This document shows, one piece after another, positions 1,485 to 62,015 of a stretch of 64,000 bases of DNA; positions within the stretch are counted from its first letter, which is position 1; every line of letters starts with the position of its first letter. The translations under genes were made by a program, and so were the position numbers. The notes below the pieces were generated by a model, which was given only the letters and a program-made list of their open reading frames with translations, did no database searches and was not told the DNA's origin. Location: the NCBI RefSeq assembly GCF_037042905.1, contig NC_087252.1:3722001-3786000 (forward strand). Reading direction: 5' to 3'. Source of the stretch: Lytechinus pictus (lineage: Eukaryota).

Positions 1485-3397
1485 TCCTTATCTGCGGTTT
1501 ATAATTGACCCCTGTATACGAGACTATATGGAAATGGAAATGGAAAGGATTACAGTTTAAAAGAATGGCAATAACAGCTTTCGAAAAGTTCCTTAAACAG
1601 TTTTGATGATGTCATATCAAGGGCGGATCGAGGCTTGAGCATGGGAAGTGCACGCCTTGGGGAGGAGGAAATAAGGTTAGGAAAATCAGCTGTTGAAAGC
1701 AGAAGTAATGGTACGAATTTCGTTTTTCTTGCCAGTGTCGGAACTCCTCTGCCTCAGCGGGAGGGTACACGTACGTGCACCCCCCCCCCCAGCCTACACC
1801 CTTGGAATTCATCAAAGATGGGGCACAGTCATTTTTCCCTTGAAATTTCTAACAAAAATACACGATAAAAAATGTATTTGCTATATAGAGATGCACTTTT
1901 TAAGGTTCGATGGATCTAAATTTGGTCGAAACCACAGCGAGCACCACTACCCCCCCCCCATAGCAGCACCCATGCACCCCTAGTGTTGGTGTATGACATT
2001 CCTTATAAATGTGATGGATTTAGTCAGAACATCTTGATTAGAAACAAATTAAAATAAACAATAAGCTATTTCACTTAATGCCTGTCAGGTCAACAAAAAA
2101 CTGTAATTGTGTAGGGTTTGTTGAGGGGAAAAGTATAGTATCGAAATACTTAATAAGCCATGCTCCAATAAACAATAATTTCCTATTAGCAAAGTATAGA
2201 AACTAGATTGAGGGGAAGACCCACTATTGATTAATAAGGAAGAGAAATTGAGTGGGTAACCACTGGTGTATTGGATCGAGATTTGGAGTGAGGCTGCTGG
2301 GCCCCCTTTTGCTGCCCCCCCCCCCAAAAAAAAAAAAAAAACACGAAAAAATAGCGTTGTTAATTAGAATGCAAACCTGGGCCAATTTAAGAACAGTCCC
2401 CAGCATTTAAAAATGAATCCACCCCGTATACATTTTATAATTGGGGTGGTTGCAAAGGTCACCCCTATCTGAAAAGTGGGGGATGTATATCCCCCATCCC
2501 CTGGGATTTATGCAAGCCACATACTTCATATTTGCAATCGTTTCCTTTGCAACTTCATCTATTTAAGCCTATATGTCTGCGTTTTGGGAACCTATATACT
2601 GGTGTCTGTATAGTAGCCTATTAAGGCTGCCTTATCGCTCAAAATTCATTTCAACCCGAGCCAGTGATACATGAGTTTTCAATGGACAATTGACGGTTCA
2701 ATCCTTGTTTCGTTTTGATATAACACCCGTTTTTTGTGTCTTTTGTTCTGAAACTTCATTTCGTCATAGGATCCAGGGGGCCCCGAGGGGCCCGGTCCCT
2801 CTCCCTTATTGGCAGAGCAAAAAAAGGTGGGAAAGAAAGAAAAAAAAGAAAAGGAATGGAAAACGAGGAGAAAAGCCGAGAAGAGGAAAAATAAGAGGAG
2901 AGAAACGAGTGAACAAAATAAGATAAGGGGAAGATTTGGAAAATAATTCTATTTAATTATGTCACTGTATAAAAGTTTTGCTCGCGCTTCGCGCTCGCAT
3001 TGCCTGTTAGGGGATTTACATATCTTGTTCAAAATAGAGTTTAAAATATTAAGTTTTGAAGTCAATATACAAAACATATTTCAGCTCGGAAATCGAACTT
3101 TCATTATTTTGTTTGATTTACAAATTGATTTTTTAAGTGCTCTGTATAAACGTCAGTTTTATATGGTCAGAATATTAACATTTTCTGCGCGCAAAATTCG
3201 ATTTTTCAGGTTGGCCTACCTATTATTTTCGTGTATTCCATAAATTTCTCAAAATATCTGCAGGTCTGATTGTCAAAACGTGTCAGTGGCGCTGCAATCT
3301 TGCATTTTGATTGGTGAGTTGTGTATATCGCAATACTAAGTCTATAACAAACTACTTAAATCCCCATTTCATGTTAGTTTATAAAGAACTTTGGCTC

Positions 3398-4513
3398 GAG
3401 ATTATTATCCCAGTTATTTTTAAGGCGTCTAAGAAACTATGATATTTTTGACAAAGCTCAGTTTGCATATCAGAACAATAGAGGCGTCGAAGACGCAGTG
3501 TTAGTCTTACTTCAGGGCGTGTATCAGCATTTAGATATTCCCAAGTCCTATGTCAGGTCTGTTTTTATAGATTTTTCAAGCGCCTTTAATACCATAGTAC
3601 CTCACATACTGATAGATAAACTACTAAATATGAATGTCTCACCTTGTCTTGTCAGAATTATTTACAATTTCCTTATAGACAGACCACAATGGGTTAAGTG
3701 CAATAATTTGAATTCTGTCACCAAATGTTTAAATTTAGGTGCTCCTCAAGGCTGTGTAATTTCACCAACTCTCTTTTCTCTCTATACAAGCGATTGTAAT
3801 GTCACCCACTATAATTGTGCAATACTTAAATATGCCGAGACACGGTCATCACTGGTTTCATCCTAGGAGACAGTAGGTCATATTTTAGGGAAGTTGATCA
3901 ATTTGTAAACTGGTGTGATCAACATCACCTAGTTCTTAACGTAAACAAGACTAAGGAAATGGTATTTGATTTTCGTCGTTCTTCTCAACTCCATGAACCA
4001 AATTACTTATTCACGATGAAATGATTGAACAAGTTTCTGAATTTATTTGGAACCACTATTGATGATAAACTGAATTGGAACAAGAACTCACAAATTGTAG
4101 CAGGCAAGGCATGTCAAAGGTTACACTTTTTGAGGAAACTCAAGGAGTTTCGTGTGGATAATAGGATCTTGGTTCTTTTCTACCAATCTCTTATTCAGAG
4201 TATCCTCACTTTCAATTTTTTGTGCATTTTTGGTAATCTCTCAAATAAAAATCTGAAAAAAATCGAAAGACCAAGGAAAATCGCACAGAGACTGATTCAC
4301 TCGGATCTTCCCCCCATTAGTACTTTGTATGAAAAACGTGTGTTACTAAAAATACATACAATCATGAATGATTCATCGCATCCATTGCACAGTTTCTTTG
4401 GATTCAACCGCTCAGGCATTCGCCTCCGTGCACCCAAGAGTAACCGTTCACGATTTAGACAATCGTTTGTACCCAATGCAATTCATATGTACAATGACAA
4501 AGTTAAACGCTGA
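3398..4513 (+). mobile_element. 5'-truncated non-LTR retrotransposon (CR1/L2/Rex-Babar group) ORF2 reverse-transcriptase remnant with frameshifts
   Basis: Motifs QFAYQNNRGVEDAV, FIDFSSAFNTI, GAPQGCVISPTLFSLYTSD and KYA(D) at a frameshift. The C-terminus continues in ORF 4025-4513. The 3' UTR resumes after 7118 and ends in AATAAAT(GAATCT)n at about 7345-7372. Confidence 0.9.
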
Positions 4514-14930: not shown

Positions 14931-15128
14931 AAACAAAGTAACTACCATGTACAGTGTAGATGGCATTATGCCTGTTGGATCAAGTGAAAACAGACCTACT
15001 CTGCTGCGTTGACAATGCTCCTTTCTTGAACAAAGTTTCACCATCGGTCATCAAGTTAGTTGGGTATTTTTATCACACTGAAGTGTTAATTCTGCTTCTC
15101 CCTCAGACACATGTACAAGATTTGAAAG

Positions 15129-15337
15129 ATGGGGAAGAAAAAGAGAGGACCAGGGTCGTTAAATCTAACAGTTGGAACAAAGAAAGGGACGCTGCGTATA
15201 GCCCCTTGTATCATGATAAGAGATGGAGGCAGGTATCGGATATGGGTCAGCGAGGCAACAATGAAAGGTCTTCTTGAGATTCAGAGTCAACTCTTGTTGA
15301 GTTCATATGATGAGGTCCTGAGCGTACTGCTTGCAAG
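15129..15337 (+). CDS. ZNF gene A, constant coding exon 1 (basic N-terminus plus RHH-like beta-alpha-alpha module)
   Basis: Acceptor TTCTCCCTCAG| at 15106, ATG at 15129, donor AAG|GTTAGT at 15337 (209 nt, phase 2). Peptide MGKKKRGPG...RYRIWVSEATMKGLLEIQSQLLLSSYDEVLSVLLA. Confidence 0.75.
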
Positions 15338-16611
15338 GTTAGTGCAATATTCTAGATTTCTTATTTAATTTTCAAACTAATCAATTCACACACTCCAAGA
15401 AATCTAAACAAATGCCACCAATGTGTGTTTATAGGCATAAAGAAAAGAATCAATTCTGTCGATATTCAAAAGATTGGAAGAGTGATTTTGATATGTTGAT
15501 ATTTTGGGAGCCATGCAAAAAATCATTCAGAATCAAGACAAGGATTGTAAATATCAGATTATAGCAGATCATGATATGATACATTTATCAGACAAAACAT
15601 TGAATTCTGTCTTTCAATATGGCATTCTTGTGACATTTTGGAGGGATATCTTACTTTAAGTAAAGTGTTATTTTTTAAAGAAAAATTTCCCCTGATTTTC
15701 CTTCTTCCCATACAGTTATAAAGAGGTACTAGGCAGAAGGCACAATGCTCAAAGTGAGAGGCTGAATGATTGGTGCTGGAACAGGTATATATACAGTTTG
15801 TATCAGGGAAACTGGTTTTTTTTTTCATGGTGTACATTTTGAGCTGACGAGCCCAATTTTTAGCAACATTACAACAGTTTACAGTGAACCCTATGTGAAT
15901 ATCAAGGGCTCTATTAGTTTCCAAGGGCTCTATAGAACATTGCGCGGGCACCCGGTGTAATTTTACCCCTGATTTGTATGACTTTATTGGTCTTATTTTT
16001 TGTGCATTACATATTTGGGTTGTCTATATCTGTTTGTGCTGTATTCATTATTATGATAACTACAATTGTGGTAATTGTACATTTAAATTGCGCAATTCCT
16101 ATATTTACTGAGCTGCTCATTACAATACTTTACAAATAAGTTTACGATAAGTTTACAAAGAGTATGAATAAGTTATAATTACAGGAAAAAGGGAAGTCTA
16201 CTGTCTTTACAAATTATATAACCAAAAGTGATTTATTTGTTGAAACTCTTGAAAAAGGTAGGTTTTTAGTTTAGTGTTGAACAAGGTAATAGATAATGCG
16301 TTCTGTAGAACCGAACCTGTTCCTTTGACAGATAATCTTTATCTATGCGTTGATTATGATCTGATGTGATTTTCGAGTCACAAAGGCATATGTACATTGC
16401 ATGGCTCATTTCCAGAATAACTTACATTGTAGAAGCAATTGAATAACTGGAATGACAAACTTTATTCACGAATGCACATTTCATTGACTATCTGATGAGA
16501 TCTTTCAGGGTTTTGACAATTTTAGAGTTAAGTTTGCAATACCTCATCTGTCAAAACTGACTTTAGTTGTGATCTACCTTTCAACTGTTGATTTGTTCCT
16601 ATATAATGCAG

Positions 16612-16719
16612 CCCAGTGCAACGAACAGACTCCTGCGAACAATCTTCAAGTAGTACTATGCAATCAGCAACATCAGTCACGGTCCACAGAGAGAAATCCA
16701 GTAAACCGGCTTCATTAGG
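16612..16719 (+). CDS. ZNF gene A, constant exon 2 (108 nt, phase 2-2)
   Basis: ATGCAG|CCCAGTG...TTAGG|GTAGGA. Open frame SPVQRTDSCEQSSSSTMQSATSVTVHREKSSKPASLG links exons 1 and 3. Confidence 0.65.
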
Positions 16720-17164: not shown

Positions 17165-17754
17165 AATCATTGGTAACCAGAAGGCCACTTCCAAGAGAGA
17201 GCAACAGCTATGTGAGACCTACAGCATTGTGAAGGAAGAGTATGTGGAAGACACTTTGACAGAACAGGACCCCTTGCAGGAAGGAAAGTCAGGAGACCGT
17301 AGGACAGAGAGCGAAAGAACTCTCCAGAAGTCTGGACAACCAAGAGGACCCCAAGGGTTTTTCTTGAAGCATGGTAATCTGGAAGATAGACGGACACCCT
17401 TGCTAGAAGACAAGTCAGGAGACTGTAGGACTGAGAGGGAAAGAACTCTTCAGATGTCTGAGAATCCAATAGGAACATGCGAGACTTCCTTGGATCGGGA
17501 AAGTAGACTGACAGGAGAAAGTAGGTCTACGGTACTATCAACGCAAGATCAGCAAGAAGAAGAGTCAGAAGATGACTTGTCCTATGCAGATGATGATATT
17601 AGTGATGATGGCAATAATAACCACAAGAACCTAGTGCATCCATCAGATGAAGGGGACTCAAGGTCCTCCACGTACTTGATGAAGAAAGAACCTGAGGACG
17701 ATGGTAGTTCCGGTGGTGGAAGAGCCAATGAAACACCATCCTGCAGCCAACAAG
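17165..17754 (+). CDS. ZNF gene A, constant exon 3 (acidic, psi-K-x-E motifs), ending in the common phase-1 donor
   Basis: CCCTTCAATAG|AATC acceptor, in the frame of ORF 17103-17819. Ends PSCSQQG at CAACAAG|GTTTGT. Confidence 0.85.
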
Positions 17755-23662: not shown

Positions 23663-25131
23663 GTGGAAATTCAAGTATGCAGAGCACCTCTCAAGGGACT
23701 GGACACATTGAGGAAATGTCAGGTGATAAATCATGTGACAGGTCACATGGGAAAGCTCTTCCAAAAGACTTCCTATTACAAGGTGTGCAAGGAAACCATT
23801 CTGAGTTTCTGATGGGGCAAGTTGCGCAAGTGCATTTCACTATTCTCCCTTTACCAAACAAAGCAGAAAATCTTCAAGGACAGAGTGTGGCCGACAGAGC
23901 TACCCTGCCAGATCCCAATGATGAAAGATTAGATGGAGACCTTGCAGTGGGCTGTGGTGTGAAATGTGACAAAACATCAGGTGATGCATCATGTGACCGA
24001 TCATATGCTCAAGGACAAAAAGTTGCTGACCGTGCTACGATTTCGGATGGTCATGATGGAAGATTGAATGGAGACATCGCAGTGGGATGTAGCATGAAAT
24101 GTGACAGAGCGGGTGATGTCTCGCTTTGCAGATCACATTCTCAAGGACATTGTTCTGTTGACAGTGCTACTGTCTCAGATCATGAAGATGAAAGGTTGGA
24201 TGGAAACATTGCAGTGGGACATGATGAAAAACATGAAATATCAGGTGATGCATCGCAAGGCAGATCTTCTAAAGGACAGAGTATTGCTGACGGTGCTTCT
24301 GTGTCAAATCACGATGATGGAAAAGTGGATAGACGTATTGCAGTGGAGCATGAAGCGAAACCTATAAATGTAACAAACTCTTTTCAAAACAAGCAAAAAA
24401 AGTCTTCAGTATTATGTTCTCCAAGAAGCACCCAAACCAATCCTCGCAGCAAGTCGAGGGAAGATAGACCTTTCGTCTGTACAGTCTGTAATAGAGGATT
24501 TAGCCGTAAGGATAACCTGACCACCCACATGAAAATTCATCAAGCGAAGAGGCGTCGTGATCAGTGCCCGTTCTGCAAGAAAAAATTCCTTTGTAGCACT
24601 TATCTGAGGATGCACATCAAGGTGCACACAGGGGAAGAGCTTTACGTGTGTTCTTTTTGCAAAAAGACGTTTTTCAAAAGGCAAAGTCTTGATGAGCACG
24701 TTAGAACCCACACAGGAGAAAAACCATTTCAGTGCTCATACTGTAATATGAGGTTTGCCCGTGCTGATGCGTTCAAGAGGCACACTCGATCTCACAAGCG
24801 AGAAACATGCCAATTTTGTGACAAAACATTTTCCCAAGCTGACGATCTCAAGACGCACATGAAAAAGCACTCTGCAGAAAAGCCCTTTCAGTGTGGCGAT
24901 TGTGGCCAGAGTTTTGCTACGAAACTCCAGGTTGTCGATCATCAAAAAACCCACGCAGGAGAAGAACCTAACTTTTGTTCTATTTGTGACAAAAAGTTTA
25001 AGAGAAAACATGATTTTATTAGACACATGAGAGTCCATACGGGAGAAAAACCCTATCATTGTCCAGTGTGCTCCAAGAGCTTTTCGGCAAAACGCTCTCG
25101 CAATAGGCATATGAAAATGCATTCAGGTTGA
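23663..25131 (+). CDS. ZNF gene A, alternative terminal exon T1: 8 C2H2 fingers (predicted isoform 791 aa)
   Basis: CTGCTCTTCTACTCAG|GTGGAAATTC phase-1 acceptor, in frame with donor 17754 and ORF 23677-25131. Has 8 CxxC-x12-HxxxH motifs with TGEKP-type linkers. Confidence 0.9.
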
Positions 25132-28074: not shown

Positions 28075-29291
28075 GTGTGAATTCAACTATCAAGACGACC
28101 TATGGTACCAAGGAAACCTATCAGGATATATCAGGTGGCACGTCACATGACATATCACATGGGGGACCTGTTCCAGAGGAATGGATCTTACATGGTGCAC
28201 AAGAAAACTATTCCGATGTATCTGCCAGGGCCAGTTGCTCAAGTGAGTATGACTCTGAACTGTTACCAAGGCAAGCTGACTATCCACAAGGACATAGTGC
28301 GACTGACAGTGATACCATGATAGATCATAATGATGGAGGATTAGATGAAGACATTGTGATGGGATGTGATGTAAAAGGTGACATGTCAGGTGATGCATCA
28401 TGTGACTGGTCACATGCTCAAGGACTGAGTGTTACTGACAGTGCTACTGCATCAGATCATGAAGAAGGCAATGCAACGGGACCTAGTGAGGAATGTCGAA
28501 CAACCTTATCAGACATCAAACAGTCTCCTTTTTGTCCAGTTTGCAATGAACAATTAACCAGCAGCGATGACTGGACTGATCATTTCAGATTACACGGCGA
28601 ACTCTGGCCTCATGAATGCACCTTCTGCAACGAAAGGTGTGCCACTCTCAAAGATCTTAACAGACACTTGCGAGTCCATCCTGGAGCTAGACCACACAAG
28701 TGCTCCATTTGTGGCAGACGCTTCTTGGAAGAATATCATCTCAGAGAACACATGGCAGTTCATGCGGCACAGAAGCGATATCAGTGCAAGTTTTGCGAGA
28801 GGACGTACGCCCGGAGGGGCAGCCTGTATGCACACATAAAGACACATGAGAGAACTTATCAATGCAAGCATTGTGATATGAGGTTTACTCATCGGATCAT
28901 GCTGTCGGAGCATACAAGATCGCATCACTCCTTGATTAAAAAAAAAACGTTTGAGTGCTCTATTTGTCACAGGAAATTTGCGAGATCTGCTGACCTCATC
29001 GGTCATCGAATAGTCCACACTGGAGAGAAACCTTTTCAATGTTCTCAGTGTGGCAAAACTTTTTCCTACAAAAGAGTGCTTGTCACCCACGAGAAGATTC
29101 ACACGGGAATAAAGGATCATCTGTGCCCTATCTGTGGGAGGGTGTTTGGTAGAGACTACATTTTACAACAACACATGTTAATACATACAGGGGATTTACC
29201 CTTTTCGTGTTCCGTATGTTCTAAGAACTTTCGGCAAAAGAGTACAATGGTAAAGCATATGAAAAGCCAACACCCAACTCTGGCCAATTAG
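28075..29291 (+). CDS. ZNF gene A, alternative terminal exon T2: 9 C2H2 fingers (predicted isoform 707 aa)
   Basis: CTATTTTCATTCAG|GTGTGAATTC phase-1 acceptor, in frame with donor 17754 and ORF 28077-29291. The ORF-track start is GTG, not ATG. Confidence 0.9.
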
Positions 29292-35285: not shown

Positions 35286-35551
35286 ATGGCCGAAACAAGA
35301 AAACTAGGTCGTCCTTCATTTTCCCCAACGAGAAAAGAAGCATTTAGAAAGGATTCCAACATGTCCAAGAAGATGTTTCGAGATAAAAAGCGGAAGGAGC
35401 GAGATGAGGCTTTGTCTACCGTCGTGCCGCCGACCGCACCCCGCTACAAACATATTCGCATTTCAACCGCTACGTTCTGGCGATGGCGATCACTTGCTCA
35501 AGAGCTTGGCCTGGAAGGAGACGAACAGATGGCTTCATTTCTCTTAAACAC
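35286..35551 (+). CDS. ZNF gene B, constant coding exon 1 (AT-hook-like KLGRP, basic helix, RHH-like module)
   Basis: ATCATGG start at 35286, downstream of a CpG-rich patch (about 35065-35160). Donor AAACAC|GTCAGT (266 nt, phase 2). Peptide ...KHIRISTATFWRWRSLAQELGLEGDEQMASFLLNT. Confidence 0.85.
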
Positions 35552-35797
35552 GTCAGTAGAATAGATTTTAAATTAAATCTCAGATATTTTCCTAAAATAA
35601 ATCTTGATCCTGGCTGTGGTAGGGTGGTTTGTAATACTAATAATAGTACAAAAAATTATGAGTGAAGTGTCATAAATTTTTAGTACAAAGTCGTCAAACT
35701 TAAGACAAAGTGTTGGGAAATATTATTCTTGAATGTTAGAGAACAAAATAGAAGATGATTCAGGGGGCTACGTTAGAGAACAAAATAGAAGATGATT

Positions 35798-39386: not shown

Positions 39387-39434
39387 GTACTATGAGCGGG
39401 CAGTGGAAGCTGCTTCTAAAGAACAGAGACAAGA
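39387..39434 (+). CDS. ZNF gene B, constant micro-exon 2 (48 nt, phase 2-2)
   Basis: TTTTAATGTAG|GTACTATGAG...ACAAGA|GTAAGT. Extends the last helix: (T)YYERAVEAASKEQRQ(D). Confidence 0.8.
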
Positions 39435-40509: not shown

Positions 40510-40787
40510 TATTCCCCAGAATTCCGAAGAATCGAGGCAAAATGTAGAGACTTCCATGTTCCAAGGTGATGAGCAAGGCACAGAGACAGATGCCATGGGA
40601 TCTACAACACTGCCAATGCAAGCTACGCAAGATGGCTGGAGAGGTGATGATGGTGACAAGAGTCACAAGACTAATGATGGTGGTGAGATGTTAGAAGGGG
40701 AGTTCACCTGCCTTGTCAAAACGGAACCTCACGATAGTGGTGAAGAATCCAATGAACATGGAACATTACCATCCGTCAGCCAACAAG
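40510..40787 (+). CDS. ZNF gene B, constant exon 3 (acidic), phase-1 donor
   Basis: TCTTATGCAG|TATTCCC...CAACAAG|GTTTGT, in the frame of ORF 40442-40819. Ends VKTEPHDSGEESNEHGTLPSVSQQG. Confidence 0.85.
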
Positions 40788-43039: not shown

Positions 43040-43298
43040 TCTCTATTCCCAAAACCAGACGGTCATGGGGAGATCATGCATTTGCATCAGCAGCTCCCCG
43101 TCTATGGAACAATCTTCCAACTAAACTAAAAGACTGTAGATCAGTAGAACATTTCAAGGCCAGTTTGAAAACTTATCTAATGGCCAAATTGTAAGTTTTT
43201 CCAGTAGTGAGTTAAGTTTATTGTAAGCGCCTTGAGCACCCCTAATAGGGTGGATATGTTTTGCGCATTATAAATGTCTTATTATTATTATTATATTA
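43040..43298 (+). mobile_element. L2-type LINE 3' end remnant, followed by a short MITE (about 43313-43520)
   Basis: Reads AAPRLWNNLPTKLKDCRSVEHFKASLKTYL, then GTAAGCGCCTTGAG...(TTA)n tail. Confidence 0.7.
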
Positions 43299-44432: not shown

Positions 44433-44552
44433 GAGACAGCTTGACAGGAGATGATGATGATAGGAAGGAGATTGAAGAAGTGGAGTTTAAATGTCTTATC
44501 AAAGAAGAACCGGATGATGGTGAACGCAACCAACCATCCTGCAGCAAGCAAG
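44433..44552 (+). CDS. ZNF gene B, exon 4 (120 nt, symmetric phase 1-1), last constant exon
   Basis: TTTCTTCAG|GAGACAGC...AAGCAAG|GTTTGT. Peptide GDSLTGDDDDRKEIEEVEFKCLIKEEPDDGERNQPSCSKQG. Confidence 0.85.
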
Positions 44553-48774: not shown

Positions 48775-49328
48775 GTGGGAATTCGAGTGAGCAGAGGAGC
48801 AATGAGGAAATGGCAGGTGATGCATCATGTGACAGATCACATGCTCATGGACTGAGTTCTGCTAACAGTGCTTACTTGTCAGATCATGGAGAATTGGCTG
48901 AAGATACCACAACCCAAAATGTGTATTATGAGACACGTGAAGAAGCATCTTCAGGGAAGGTTTACAGCATATTTTCGCCTAGAAGCTATCAACATGATCC
49001 TCCCCAGGACCCTGGCATTGATAAACCTTACGTCTGCCCTGTTTGCAGTAAAGGATTTACCCGCAGCGATTGCTTTCGAAGGCATAAGAAAACGCATCGT
49101 AGTGAAAGGCCTCATGAGTGCCATTTATGCCCAAAGAGGTTTCAGCGTGCCGAAGATCTCCGAAGACACCTACGAACCCACTCTGGAGAAAAACCATATG
49201 CATGCTCCGTTTGCAATCGACGCTTTGGTAGGAACTCAAGTCTCAAACAACATATGGCACGTTATGAGGTTAGCTGCGACACTGGTCAACGTGTGATTAA
49301 ATGTATAATGGAAAAAGTGCTTGTATAA
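48775..49328 (+). CDS. ZNF gene B variable exon a1: 2 canonical C2H2 fingers plus 1 atypical finger (isoform 421 aa)
   Basis: CTGCTCTCCTACTCAG|GTGGGAATTC phase-1 acceptor, in the frame of ORF 48726-49328. Confidence 0.85.
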
Positions 49329-49573: not shown

Positions 49574-50153
49574 TTGAGTATGCAGAGCATCTGTGAAGAC
49601 ATCAGGAAAAATGAGGGAATGTCAGGTGATACATCATGTGACAGATCACATGTTCATGGACAGAGTGCTGGTACCAGTGCTGTTTCAGATCAATTGGCTG
49701 AAGATATCACGACCCAATCTGTGTACGGTGAGACACATGAAGAATCATTTTCAAGGATGTTTTACAGCATATTTTTACCTAGAAGCAATCAACATAATCC
49801 TCCCCAGGACCCTGGCATTGAAAAACCTCATGTCTGCCCTGTTTGCAGGAAAGGATTTACCCACATCAATTGCTTTCGAAGGCATAAGAAAATCCATCGC
49901 AATGAAAGGCCTCATGTGTCATTTATGACCGAAAAAATTTCAACGTGCCGAAGATCTCCGAAGGCACATGTGGAAACACAAGGAGAAAAACCATATATGC
50001 TCAGTATGCGATAAACGCTAATAGTTGGAACTCAAGTTTCAAAAACCATTTGGCAGTTCATAAATGAGAAAAACTATATATATGCTCAGTATGCGATAAA
50101 CGCTAATAGTTGGAACTCAAGTTTCAAAAACCATTTGGCAGTTCATAAATGAG
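49574..50153 (+). pseudogene. Gene B variable exon b1, defective
   Basis: Homologous to b2/b3, but the CTGCTCTTTTACTCAG|GTGG acceptor is deleted. Frameshift after finger 1, in-frame stops, and an about 85 bp tandem duplication at 49983-50153. Confidence 0.8.
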
Positions 50154-50468: not shown

Positions 50469-51457
50469 GTGGGAATTCAAGCAAACAGAGCTCCTGTCAA
50501 GAAATAGGGAACACTCAGATAATGTCAGGTGATACATCACATGACAGATCACATGGGAAGCATCTCCCAGGTGACTACCCTTTACCAGCTGTCCTAGGAA
50601 CCCCTTCCCATTCATCTCCCAGAGGCCATCGCTCAAGTGAGTATGGCTCCTATCTCTTGCCAAACCAAGTGGATTATCCTCAAAGACAGAATGCAACTGA
50701 CAGTGCTACCATGTCAGATCGGAAGAGGTTGGATGGAGGCATTGTGGTGGAGAATGAGAATTATGACACATATTCTTTACAAAACACAAAAAGGTCATTC
50801 CCCGTCGAGACAAGAAGCATTCAAAGTACTTCTTGCATCAATCCCGAAGGAGAAAACACTTTTCTCTGTTCCATTTGCAGTAAGGAATTTAACCGCAAGC
50901 ATAATTTGAGGCGGCATATGAAATTCCATGAAGGAAAAAGACCTCACACGTGCTCTTTCTGCAACAAAACTTTTGTACAAAAAGGCGATCTCAGGAGACA
51001 TGAGCGATCCCATACTGGGGAAAGACCGTATTCATGTTGTTTTTGTGACAAACGCTTTATAGATACATCCCACCTAAAAGCTCATTTGTTAATTCACACT
51101 GGAGAAAAGCCGTATGAATGCAGCCTTTGTGACAAAACCTTTTCTCATAAAGCTAGCCTAACGGTTCACCTGAGATTGCACAGTGGTGAGAAGCCATTCA
51201 AGTGTTCACTCTGCGACAACAGCTTTTCTTTGAAAAGTCAGCTCATGAATCATCAGATCAAACACACGGGCATAAAGCCATACCAGTGCTCGGTTTGTGA
51301 GAAAAGGGTCGGGACAAAAAGCTCTTTAAGTCAACATATGAAGATTCATTCAGGAGAAAAACCATTTCAGTGTTCTGTATGTTCAAAGTGCTTTCGGCGG
51401 AAGAGTACTCTTAAAAAACATATGAAAATCCATGGAATCTCTTGTGAGGACTTGTGA
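50469..51457 (+). CDS. ZNF gene B variable exon c1: 7 C2H2 fingers (isoform 566 aa)
   Basis: CTGCTCTTTTACTCAG|GTGGGAATTC acceptor, in the frame of ORF 50219-51457. AATAAA at about 51594. Confidence 0.9.
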
Positions 51458-54831: not shown

Positions 54832-55343
54832 GTGGAAATTCAAGTGTACTAAGCATCTGTGAAGAGATCAGGAAAAATGAGGAAATGTCAGGTGATACAT
54901 CATGTGACCGATCACATGCTCATGGACTGAGTTCTGCTAACAGTGCTTCCAGGTCATATCAAGGAGAATTGACTGAGGACATAATGACCCAGTACATGTA
55001 TGTGTGTGGTGAGACACATGAAGAAGCATTTTCAAGGAAGTTATTTTCACCTAGAAGTAATCAACATAATCCTCCCCAGGACCCTGGCATTGATAAAACT
55101 TACACCTGCCCTGTTTGCAGTAAAGGATTTACCCGCAATGATTGCTTTCAGAGGCATAAGAAAATCCATCGAAAGGAAAGGCCTCATGTGTGCCGTTTAT
55201 GCCCGAAGAGATTTCTGCGTGCCGAAGATCTTCGAAGACATATGCGGATACACACTGGAGAAAAACCATATGTATGCTCTGTATGCGATAAATGCTTTAG
55301 TTGGACTTCTAGTTTCAAACGCCATTTGACAGTTCATAGATGA
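54832..55343 (+). CDS. ZNF gene B variable exon b2: 3 C2H2 fingers (isoform 407 aa)
   Basis: CTGCTCTTTTACTCAG|GTGGAAATTC acceptor, in the frame of ORF 54768-55343. Confidence 0.88.
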
Positions 55344-55660: not shown

Positions 55661-56637
55661 GTGGGAATGTAGGCAAACAGAGCTCCTGTCAACAAAAAGG
55701 GAATACTCAGATAATATCAGGTGATTTATCACATGGGAGGCATCTCCCAGGTGACTACCCTTTACAAGGAACCCCTTCTTATTCATCTCCCAGAGGCAAT
55801 TGCTCAAGTGAGTATGGCTCCTATCTCTTACCAGACCAAGCAGATTATCCTCAAGGACAGTGCTCTGCTGACAGTGCTACCACGTCAAATCATGATGGTG
55901 AAAGATTGGTTCTAGACATTGTTGTGGGGAATGAGAAATATCACACAAATTCTTTACAAAACACAAAGAAGTTATCCCCTGTCACTGCAACGAGAAGCAT
56001 TCAAGGCAATCCTGGCATCGACCCCAAAGAAGAAAGCACCTTTCTCTGTTCCGTTTGCAATGAAGGATGTAAACGCAAGGATGATTTGAAGCGGCATATG
56101 ATCTTCCACAAAGGGAAAAAGCTTCATGAGTGTTCTTTCTGCAACAAAACTTTTGTATCAAAAGCCAATCTCATTAGACATGAGCGATCCCATACTGGGG
56201 AAAGACCGTATTCATGCTTTATTTGCAACAAACGGTTTCTAGATACGTCTCATCTAAAAGCTCATCTGTCAATTCACACGGGAGAAAAACCGTATGAATG
56301 CAGCCTTTGTAACAAAGCCTTTTCTCTTAAAGCTCCTCTAATGGCTCACCTGAGAATGCACAGTGGTGAGAAGCCATTCAAGTGTTCACTCTGCAAAAAC
56401 AGCTTTTCTTCCAAAAGTAATCTCAAGGCTCATCAGATCAAGCACACGGGCGAAAAGCCGTACCAATGCTCGGTTTGTGAGAAAAGGCTGTGGAAAAAAG
56501 ACTCTTTAAATCAACATATGAAGATTCATACAGGAGAAAAACCATTTCAGTGTTCTATTTGTTCAAAGAACTTTCGGCAGAAGAGTAATCTTAAAAATCA
56601 TATGAAAATCCATGAAATATCTTCTGACGATTTGTGA
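55661..56637 (+). CDS. ZNF gene B variable exon c2: 7 C2H2 fingers (isoform 562 aa)
   Basis: CTGCTCTTTTTAAATACTCAG|GTGGGAATG acceptor. The phase-1 frame is open (GGNVGKQSSC...) into ORF 55906-56637, whose start is TTG. Confidence 0.88.
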
Positions 56638-60197: not shown

Positions 60198-60703
60198 ATG
60201 GAAATTCAAGTGTGCTGAGCATCTGTGAAGATATCAGGAAAAATGAGGAAATGTCGGGTGATACATCATGTGACAGATCACATGCTCATGGACTGAGTTC
60301 TGCTAACAGTGCTTCCAGGTCAGATCAAGGAGAATTGACTGAGGATGTAATGACTCAGTATGTGTGTGGTGAGACACATGAAGAAGCCTTTTCAAGGAAG
60401 TTATTTTCACCTAGAAGTAATCAACATAATCCTCCCCAGGACCCTGGCATTGATAAAACTTACACCTGCCCTGTTTGCAGGAAAGGATTTACCCGCTATG
60501 ATAGTTTTCAGAGGCATAAGAAAATCCATCAAAAGGAAAGGCCTCATGTGTGTCATTTATGCCCCAAGAGATTTGTGCGTGCTGAAGATCTCCGAAGACA
60601 TATGCGGATACACACTGGAGAAAAACCATATGTATGCTCTGTATGCGATAAACAATTTATTTGGAACTCTAGTTTCAAATACCATTTGACAGTTCATAGA
60701 TGA
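60198..60703 (+). CDS. ZNF gene B variable exon b3: 3 C2H2 fingers (isoform 405 aa)
   Basis: CTGCTCTTTTACTCAG|ATGGAAATTC acceptor, in the frame of ORF 60110-60703. Confidence 0.88.
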
Positions 60704-61026: not shown

Positions 61027-62015
61027 GTGGGAATGTAGGCAAACAGAGCTCCTGTCAACAAAAAGGGAATACTCAGATAATATCAGGTGATTCATCACAT
61101 GACAGATCACATGGGAAGCATCTCCCAGGTGACTACCCTTTACAAGGAACCCCTTCCAATTCATCTCCCAGAGGCAATTGCTCAAGTGAGTATGGCTCCT
61201 ATCTCTTACCAAACCAAGCAGATTATCCTCAAGGACAGTGCTCTGCTGACAGTGCTACCACGTCAAATCATGATGGTGAAAGATTGGTTCTAGACATTGT
61301 TGTGGGGAATGAGAAATATCACACAAATTCTTTACAAAACACAAAGAAGTCATCCCCTGTCACTGCAATGAGAAGCATTCAAGGCAATCCTGGCATCGAC
61401 CTCAAAGAAGAAAGCACCTTTCTCTGTTCCGTTTGCAATGAAGGATGTAAACGCAAGGATGATTTGAAGCGGCATATGATCTTCCACAAAGGGAAAAAGC
61501 CTCACGAGTGTTCTTTCTGCAACAAAACTTTTGTACAAAAAGCTGATCTCATTAGACATGAGCGATCTCATACTGGGGAAAGACCGTATTCATGCCTTAT
61601 TTGCAACAAACGCTTCACAGATACGTCTCATCTAAAAGCTCATCTATCAATTCACACAGGAGAAAAGCCGTATGAATGTAGCCTTTGTAACAAAGCCTTT
61701 TCTAATAAAGCTAACCTAACGGTTCACCTGAGATTGCACAGTGGTGAGAAGCCATTCAAGTGTTCACTCTGCAACAACAGCTTTTCTTCCAAAAGTCTGC
61801 TCGTGAATCACCAGATCAAACACACAGGCATAAAGCCGTACCAGTGCTCAATTTGTGAGAAAAGGCTTGGGAAAAAATATTCTTTAAATCAACATATGAA
61901 GATTCATTCAGGAGAAAAACCATTTCAATGTTCTGTTTGTTCAAAGAACTTTCGGGTGAAGAGTACTCTTAAAAAACATATGAAGATCCATGAAATTTCT
62001 ATTGAGGACTTGTGA
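61027..62015 (+). CDS. ZNF gene B variable exon c3: 7 C2H2 fingers (isoform 566 aa)
   Basis: CTGCTCTTTTTAAATACTCAG|GTGGGAATG acceptor. The frame is open into ORF 61284-62015. Confidence 0.88.

Follow-up and report, generated by a model that had tools for sequence, protein, structure and literature searches.

Background

Ribbon-helix-helix (RHH) domains are DNA-binding domains. In the known arrangement of their dimers, two chains contribute to one antiparallel ribbon and helix B packs across the chains; the start of helix B is marked by a small capping residue in a G-x-S/T motif. Plant-TFClass, in the available portion of its description, lists RHH among the DNA-binding classes that are absent from mammals (bioRxiv 10.1101/2022.11.22.517060). 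The accessible text of another source has an InterPro RHH entry among the transcription factor domains of fungi (PMC5415576), which suggests that eukaryotic RHH annotations exist outside plants. In plants, TCP domains have a short basic strand motif and a basic N-terminal region, according to the available part of PMC9841405.

The usual effector domains of C2H2 zinc-finger proteins are BTB, ZAD, SCAN and KRAB (PMC12774644, accessible text). In the case of Drosophila lola, heterodimers between isoforms have been reported by two-hybrid analysis (PMC5127561, accessible text). In the literature that we searched, no RHH domain was described in an animal finger protein; subscription papers, and TED/CATH for AlphaFold models, may already assign the fold.

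In the present study, we analysed a stretch of 64,000 nucleotides from the sea urchin Lytechinus pictus (NC_087252.1, positions 3,722,001 to 3,786,000; the window), in which two zinc-finger genes, A and B, had been proposed in an initial annotation to carry an RHH-like module in the place of a dimerisation domain. Structure prediction suggests that the module of about 40 residues in gene B is probably a self-pairing RHH domain; it would likely couple splice forms with different finger arrays.

Gene structure and isoforms

Both peptides named in the initial annotation were found on the + strand, within the coding exons of a pair of paralogous genes for C2H2 zinc-finger proteins. The gene B peptide begins at 35451, and its final three residues (YYE) are encoded by the exon starting at 39387. 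We regard A and B as paralogues because their spacer exons are 44% identical (E 5e-20). In a six-frame translation of the window, the + strand encodes C2H2 arrays at 24.5-25.1, 28.5-29.3 and 49-62 kb. The exon layout (Table 1) was obtained by mapping five gene models back onto the window, and the junctions and isoform use are based on public automatic gene models together with splice signals. The gene B exon translation agreed with the gene models at 99-100% in L. pictus and 92% in L. variegatus, and that of gene A likewise. As had been stated, an intron interrupts the module at the same place in both genes: the equivalent codon is divided by a phase-2 intron in A and in B, and the two junctions recur in the public models for L. 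pictus and L. variegatus.

Table 1. Coding exons, modules and finger exons of genes A and B within the window
Feature	Positions	Strand	Remarks
Gene A first coding stretch	15129..15337	+	ATG as in L. variegatus models; phase-2 donor GTTAGT at 15338
Gene A module	15231..15337	+	gapless alignment to B module in intron-fixed register; fold putative
Gene A next exon	15716..15784	+	completes module
Gene A shared spacer exon	16612..16719	+	model mapping
Gene A last shared exon	17165..17754	+	model mapping
Gene A alternative finger exon	23663..25131	+	8 fingers; orthologous model P0013
Gene A alternative finger exon	28075..29291	+	9 fingers; models P0012, P0014
Gene B first coding exon	35286 (ATG)..35551	+	phase-2 donor GTCAGT at 35552; basic leader, then RHH-like module
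Gene B RHH-like module, residues 54-89	35445..35551	+	predicted strand ~55-60, helix A 61-74, turn, helix B from 78
Gene B second coding exon	39387..39434	+	first codons complete helix B
Gene B shared spacer exon	40510..40787	+	model mapping
Gene B last shared exon	44433..44552	+	donor leads to alternative finger exons
Gene B alternative finger exon	48775..49328	+	2 canonical fingers; model P0004
Degenerate finger-exon copy	49577..50014	+	1 in-frame finger; acceptor uncertain
Gene B alternative finger exon	50469..51457	+	7 fingers; model P0006
Gene B candidate alternative finger exon	54832..55343	+	3 fingers
Gene B candidate alternative finger exon	55661..56637	+	7 fingers
Gene B candidate alternative finger exon	60198..60703	+	3 fingers
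Gene B candidate alternative finger exon	61027..62015	+	7 fingers

In the gene models, the same first exons of A and of B are joined to different terminal finger exons. Behind one N-terminus, gene B has three different arrays (five finger-bearing L. pictus models examined) and gene A two (among three models); paralogue C, a third Lytechinus gene, has at least two (among five models). The proposal that isoforms keep one module and differ in their finger arrays is thereby borne out in annotated gene models. Gene B models include one further finger array outside the window.

Several other features of the gene models and of the window were observed. The gene B model P0001 of L. pictus (263 aa) keeps the module and the spacer and has no fingers; it is possibly a dominant-negative or RHH-only form. 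In models P0002, P0003, P0005, P0007 and P0011, several finger exons contribute just their 5' portion through internal donors, and spacer repeats are strung together ahead of the last array. Between 48775 and 62015 the finger exons come in pairs, a short array followed by a seven-finger array (49577, degenerate, with 50469; 54832 with 55661; 60198 with 61027), which looks like recent tandem duplication, and frameshifted remnants lie near 54.2 and 59.6 kb. A second open frame crosses the first exon of gene A (14960-15274, +) and encodes KERDAA just upstream of the module, similar to KERDEA in the gene B leader; public models use the other frame, and the likeness may be due to chance or to an old frameshift. 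Shared spacer exons (17165-17754, 40510-40787 and 44433-44552) each contain a hydrophobic-Lys-x-Glu motif, which we take to be a consensus SUMO site. Elsewhere, the window has a 495-codon open frame with leucine-rich repeats (3-1487, - strand) that extends past its edge, as well as reverse-transcriptase-like fragments at 3378-4510 (+) and near 43059-43191, presumably from non-LTR retrotransposons.

Predicted fold and dimer of the gene B module

The AlphaFold2 model of the gene B monomer, for which the alignment had four rows only, has a strand at residues 29-31 of the 68-residue query, followed by helices at 33-46 and 50-67. Its mean pLDDT is 66.5; the blocks over residues 31-68 have values of 82, 86, 81 and 72, and the strand block 53. 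The strand-helix-helix topology of RHH domains is therefore predicted for gene B, with low confidence in the strand.

In an exhaustive fold search over 48,161 chains, the first rows were NikR (Z 5.3, rmsd 1.6, 45 aligned residues), the antitoxin Rv0298 (Z 5.1, rmsd 2.1, 46 aligned), TraM (Z 5.0, rmsd 1.5, 43 aligned) and PutA52 (Z 4.8, rmsd 1.7, 44 aligned), to which the model has 9-16% identity. AmrZ and ArtA were also among the first rows. Among the best 50 rows, RHH is stated in three titles, three rows are plant TCP domains and two are nuclear-pore chains; we take 40 of the 50, the three titled ones included, to be RHH proteins, and we do not vouch for five. The tool warns that a Z below 8 may reflect a merely common arrangement, and as the best Z is only 5.3, the weight rests on the uniformity of the row list. 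With Foldseek, nine of the first ten PDB rows were TCP domains (7vp2-7vp7 and 5zkt; E 0.4-0.7, rmsd 2.1-5.1) and the other was CopG (rmsd 1.5, 36 columns), and several named rows of the viral library were CopG-like or RHH; neither library gave a match at E 0.001. Sequence searches of the PDB gave nothing significant.

When two gene B chains were folded together without an alignment, the score was 0.57, compared with 0.02 for the best of three controls. The runs agreed in at least 97% of contacts, with a pLDDT of at least 80. The predicted contacts 27-31, 28-30 and 29-29 describe an antiparallel ribbon of two chains centred on Ile57, and the contacts 58-58, 59-39 and 55-35 describe helix packing across the chains. 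In this complex test, 21 of 30 solved homodimers and none of 23 monomers attained the mark; among eukaryotic proteins, 17 of 29 dimers and none of 30 monomers did so. Only one of seven eukaryotic dimers without an older solved relative passed, so that the intermolecular ribbon predicted for B:B may reflect memory of solved RHH dimers. The self-dimer that had been suggested is thus supported by prediction for gene B, whose module, according to these models, probably works like an RHH dimer.

Sequence pattern, domain families and range

We compared eight distinct rows of the module from two phyla. Positions 57, 64, 67, 70, 82, 83, 86 and 87 are hydrophobic in all eight. In the strand, the inward positions 55, 57 and 59 are hydrophobic in seven, eight and five rows, and the outward positions 54, 56 and 58 in two, none and two, which is the alternation of inward hydrophobic and outward polar residues seen in RHH strands. 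Position 78, at the start of helix B, is S, T, G or D in every row (Gly rather than Ser/Thr in B), and Gly is found at 75 in three of the eight. Helix A contains Trp in seven rows, and the turn is one residue longer in urchin rows than in snail rows.

Pfam BTB, KRAB, SCAN and ZAD gave no match to the A and B exon translations or to the full-length proteins P0014, P0016, P0017 and P0019. The module was therefore correctly described as a non-BTB, non-KRAB and non-ZAD one, and Pfam assigns it to no known zinc-finger-associated domain; indeed, no Pfam family names it. Gene B matched none of the Pfam RHH families (RHH_1 and RHH_5 among them), and its weak Pfam matches were HTH_23 and ARID. One copy from the snail Littorina matched RHH_5 at E 0.038 (14.2 bits, far below the curated cut-off of 26), or at E 0.15 when the stretch was cut, and clusters named RepB-RCR_reg/RHH_1 appeared in the Atlas at 0.76-0.77; these RHH_5 and RHH_1 matches are independent, weak hints. 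Pfam TCP did not match B, A or Littorina queries. Judged by sequence profiles, the module is a member of no Pfam RHH family.

With B as the sole query, a full HMMER scan over 1.84 billion representatives produced six hits, three of which were B itself or its orthologue. Two others were paralogue C (P0016, E 1.6e-5) and the Littorina saxatilis finger protein P0017 (E 7.7e-4). The sixth hit, P0015, was rejected; its sequence is repetitive and matches only the proline-rich linker. In P0017, four tandem module copies precede the finger arrays; a fifth Littorina copy is present in a neighbouring gene model (P0019). Both an echinoderm and a mollusc thus have the module, and in every case it lies N-terminal to C2H2 arrays. 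After the last module copy, P0017 (~320-340) and P0019 (~188-202) have two or three CxxC pairs clustered together, a feature absent from the urchin proteins.

Word-index searches gave 11 of 42 candidates with B and 3 of 124 with A, all from Lytechinus. With a four-row alignment, 16 of 4,182 candidates were obtained, all from Lytechinus or the Littorina seed, and three more paralogue C models were added. Both the word-index and the HMMER searches are too shallow to set the range of the family. The link to transposons or other mobile elements that had been considered was not found in metagenome contigs (79 pattern matches, none confirmed), viral contigs (21, none confirmed), plasmids or PHROGs. 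Three plasmid records from tblastn at E 5-10 were taken as chance; in PHROGs, the match of one A1 member, at E 0.23, was to an unnamed family, and A2 had no match. The top match of a first Atlas search was a 61-member eukaryotic cluster in which Mollusca are commonest (0.78), which serves as a lead only; a second Atlas search gave no usable match.

Paralogues B and C are identical at 24 of 41 module residues, whereas their leaders agree at 14 of 52 and their spacers at 37 of 141; the module is the part that they keep best. Between the gene B proteins of L. pictus and L. variegatus, identity is 38/41 in the module and 48/52 in the leader, so the module is no more conserved than the leader.

Proposed mode of action and alternatives

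In the proposed dimer, the strands of two gene B chains would run antiparallel in a single ribbon with Ile57 at its centre, and each helix B would pack across the two-fold against helix A and the strand of the partner. Because the gene models join shared first exons to different finger exons, co-expressed isoforms could then form mixed dimers that bear two different arrays. By analogy with the RHH fold, the outward ribbon residues Tyr54, His56 and Arg58, together with the basic leader, may touch DNA as well, for which we would give roughly equal odds either way. To describe the module as occupying an effector slot may therefore understate it, since RHH domains bind DNA and the outward face of the B strand has His and Arg.

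An alternative, to which we give slightly less than an even chance, is that the module serves chiefly to bind DNA in addition to the fingers, like bacterial RHH and plant TCP domains; its dimer would read a short site of its own and the fingers would add adjacent specificity. RHH ribbons touch bases through outward residues, and the accessible text on TCP domains describes an RVR/RIR strand and basic loops (PMC9841405). Residues 56-58 of the urchin modules are His-Ile-Arg in B, Gln-Phe-Arg in C and Arg-Ile-Trp in A, and the gene B leader has 15 K/R within residues 1-52. The existence of a gene model with the module and no fingers (P0001) also fits, as do the four tandem Littorina copies, which could pair within a chain rather than join two proteins. 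However, the outward positions are variable, with Ser/Thr predominating among the five Littorina copies, and the B module itself is near neutral, with 6 K/R and 5 D/E. Self-pairing that couples splice forms remains our preferred reading for gene B.

In the case of gene A, the initial annotation stands in part. The A and B segments do align, as claimed, when the alignment is anchored at the intron, but free searches miss the link; and the RHH fold, predicted for gene B by the monomer model and the fold search, did not appear in the gene A model, which is a single helix. It is conceivable, though on the whole unlikely, that the RHH-like character is limited to B and its closest relatives, and that A has an amphipathic helix, unrelated or degenerated, with no shared module and no A:B pairing. 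The modelled helix spans residues 14-55 without a turn (mean pLDDT 84.2), with the strand region left extended. BLASTP aligned A with B at E 0.8 in a different register, an HMM built from nine B-like rows did not detect A, and hhalign gave a probability of 5.8% (E 0.0066), in the intron register. A lacks Trp67, Ala71, Gly75 and Ala83, which are common in the other rows of the eight-row table.

Against this, the gene A model was built from two rows that are 91% identical, and A retains Thr63 as well as a Ser in the cap position of helix B. When the intron sets the register, 11 of 39 residues are identical between A and B in a gapless alignment (BLOSUM62 score 31); this score was matched by a fraction of 0.00002 of 50,000 shuffles (p 2e-5), with a p of 0.0023 when the hydrophobic/polar pattern was kept, and the register was the best of 15. 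Compared with the average of seven B-like rows, A had a p of 0.0002. Among 6,251 windows of eight fetched proteins, A ranked directly after B and its paralogue, and in a six-frame scan of the analysed DNA with the averaged profile it was 6th of 23,766 windows, after B and four others. The shared phase and codon of the intron, and the paralogy evident from the spacer exons, also argue for common origin. The A-B likeness thus appears real but faint, and it rests on the anchored test. We consider it quite probable that the gene A module is a diverged homologue of the B module, and somewhat favour the view that it still folds as RHH.

We consider it improbable that the RHH dimer is a modelling artefact and that the module folds instead into a small hairpin of helices, docking a co-repressor as KRAB or FiNZ do: two short helices with an extended tail do resemble many small dimers, the Z is low, no E-value is significant and the memory caveat of the complex test applies, but the top rows are concentrated in one fold in three libraries, the alternating strand pattern holds in eight rows from two phyla, and the controls did not exceed 0.02.

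Significance and comparison with known systems

If the preferred reading of a self-pairing RHH module is true, the RHH dimers of urchin and snail finger proteins would be a further kind of effector domain beside BTB, ZAD, SCAN and KRAB, and the only kind among these that may read DNA itself. The module, which we take to resemble the N-terminal motif of vertebrate ZNF692 and ZNF653, could more tentatively belong to an undescribed animal RHH family that extends from molluscs and echinoderms to these human proteins, as a DNA-binding dimer combining the finger arrays of paralogues and isoforms; on present evidence we rather doubt so wide a family. ZNF692 and ZNF653 were not among the proteins returned by the word-index or HMMER searches, which were shallow for family range, and our literature search found no description of their N-terminus. 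Such a family, if true, would add to animal transcription factors a fold thought absent from mammals, and the resemblance, if it holds, would provide a structural hypothesis for the N-terminus of ZNF692 and ZNF653. The proposal is directly testable in sea urchin with a construct of 45 residues.

With prokaryotic RHH proteins (CopG, Arc, the N-terminal domains of NikR and TraM, PutA52 and antitoxins), the gene B module shares the predicted strand-helix-helix order and the alternating strand, as well as the two-chain antiparallel ribbon, which is predicted in B, and perhaps the small cap before helix B. Unlike them, it precedes C2H2 arrays in an animal gene with introns, and its helix A carries a Trp (seven of eight rows); no significant sequence link to them was found. 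Plant TCP domains (OsPCF6, 5zkt; AtTCP10 and AtTCP15, 7vp series), the top Foldseek rows, are a eukaryotic precedent for an RHH-like fold, but they differ in their DRH loop, beta-hairpin and conserved binding site, and those who described TCP class it apart from RHH. To our knowledge, TCP proteins carry no C2H2 arrays.

Among finger-associated domains, BTB, ZAD, SCAN, KRAB and FiNZ are likewise N-terminal and upstream of the finger exons, as far as the accessible texts describe them (PMC12774644, PMC10547256). FiNZ is a 28-residue acidic sequence of cyprinid fish (PMC10547256). Drosophila lola, a BTB zinc-finger gene, has the same combination of a shared N-terminal dimerisation domain and many alternative C-terminal finger exons; in contrast to that of lola, the urchin module is not BTB by Pfam, has about 40 residues and, by analogy with RHH domains, may itself bind DNA.
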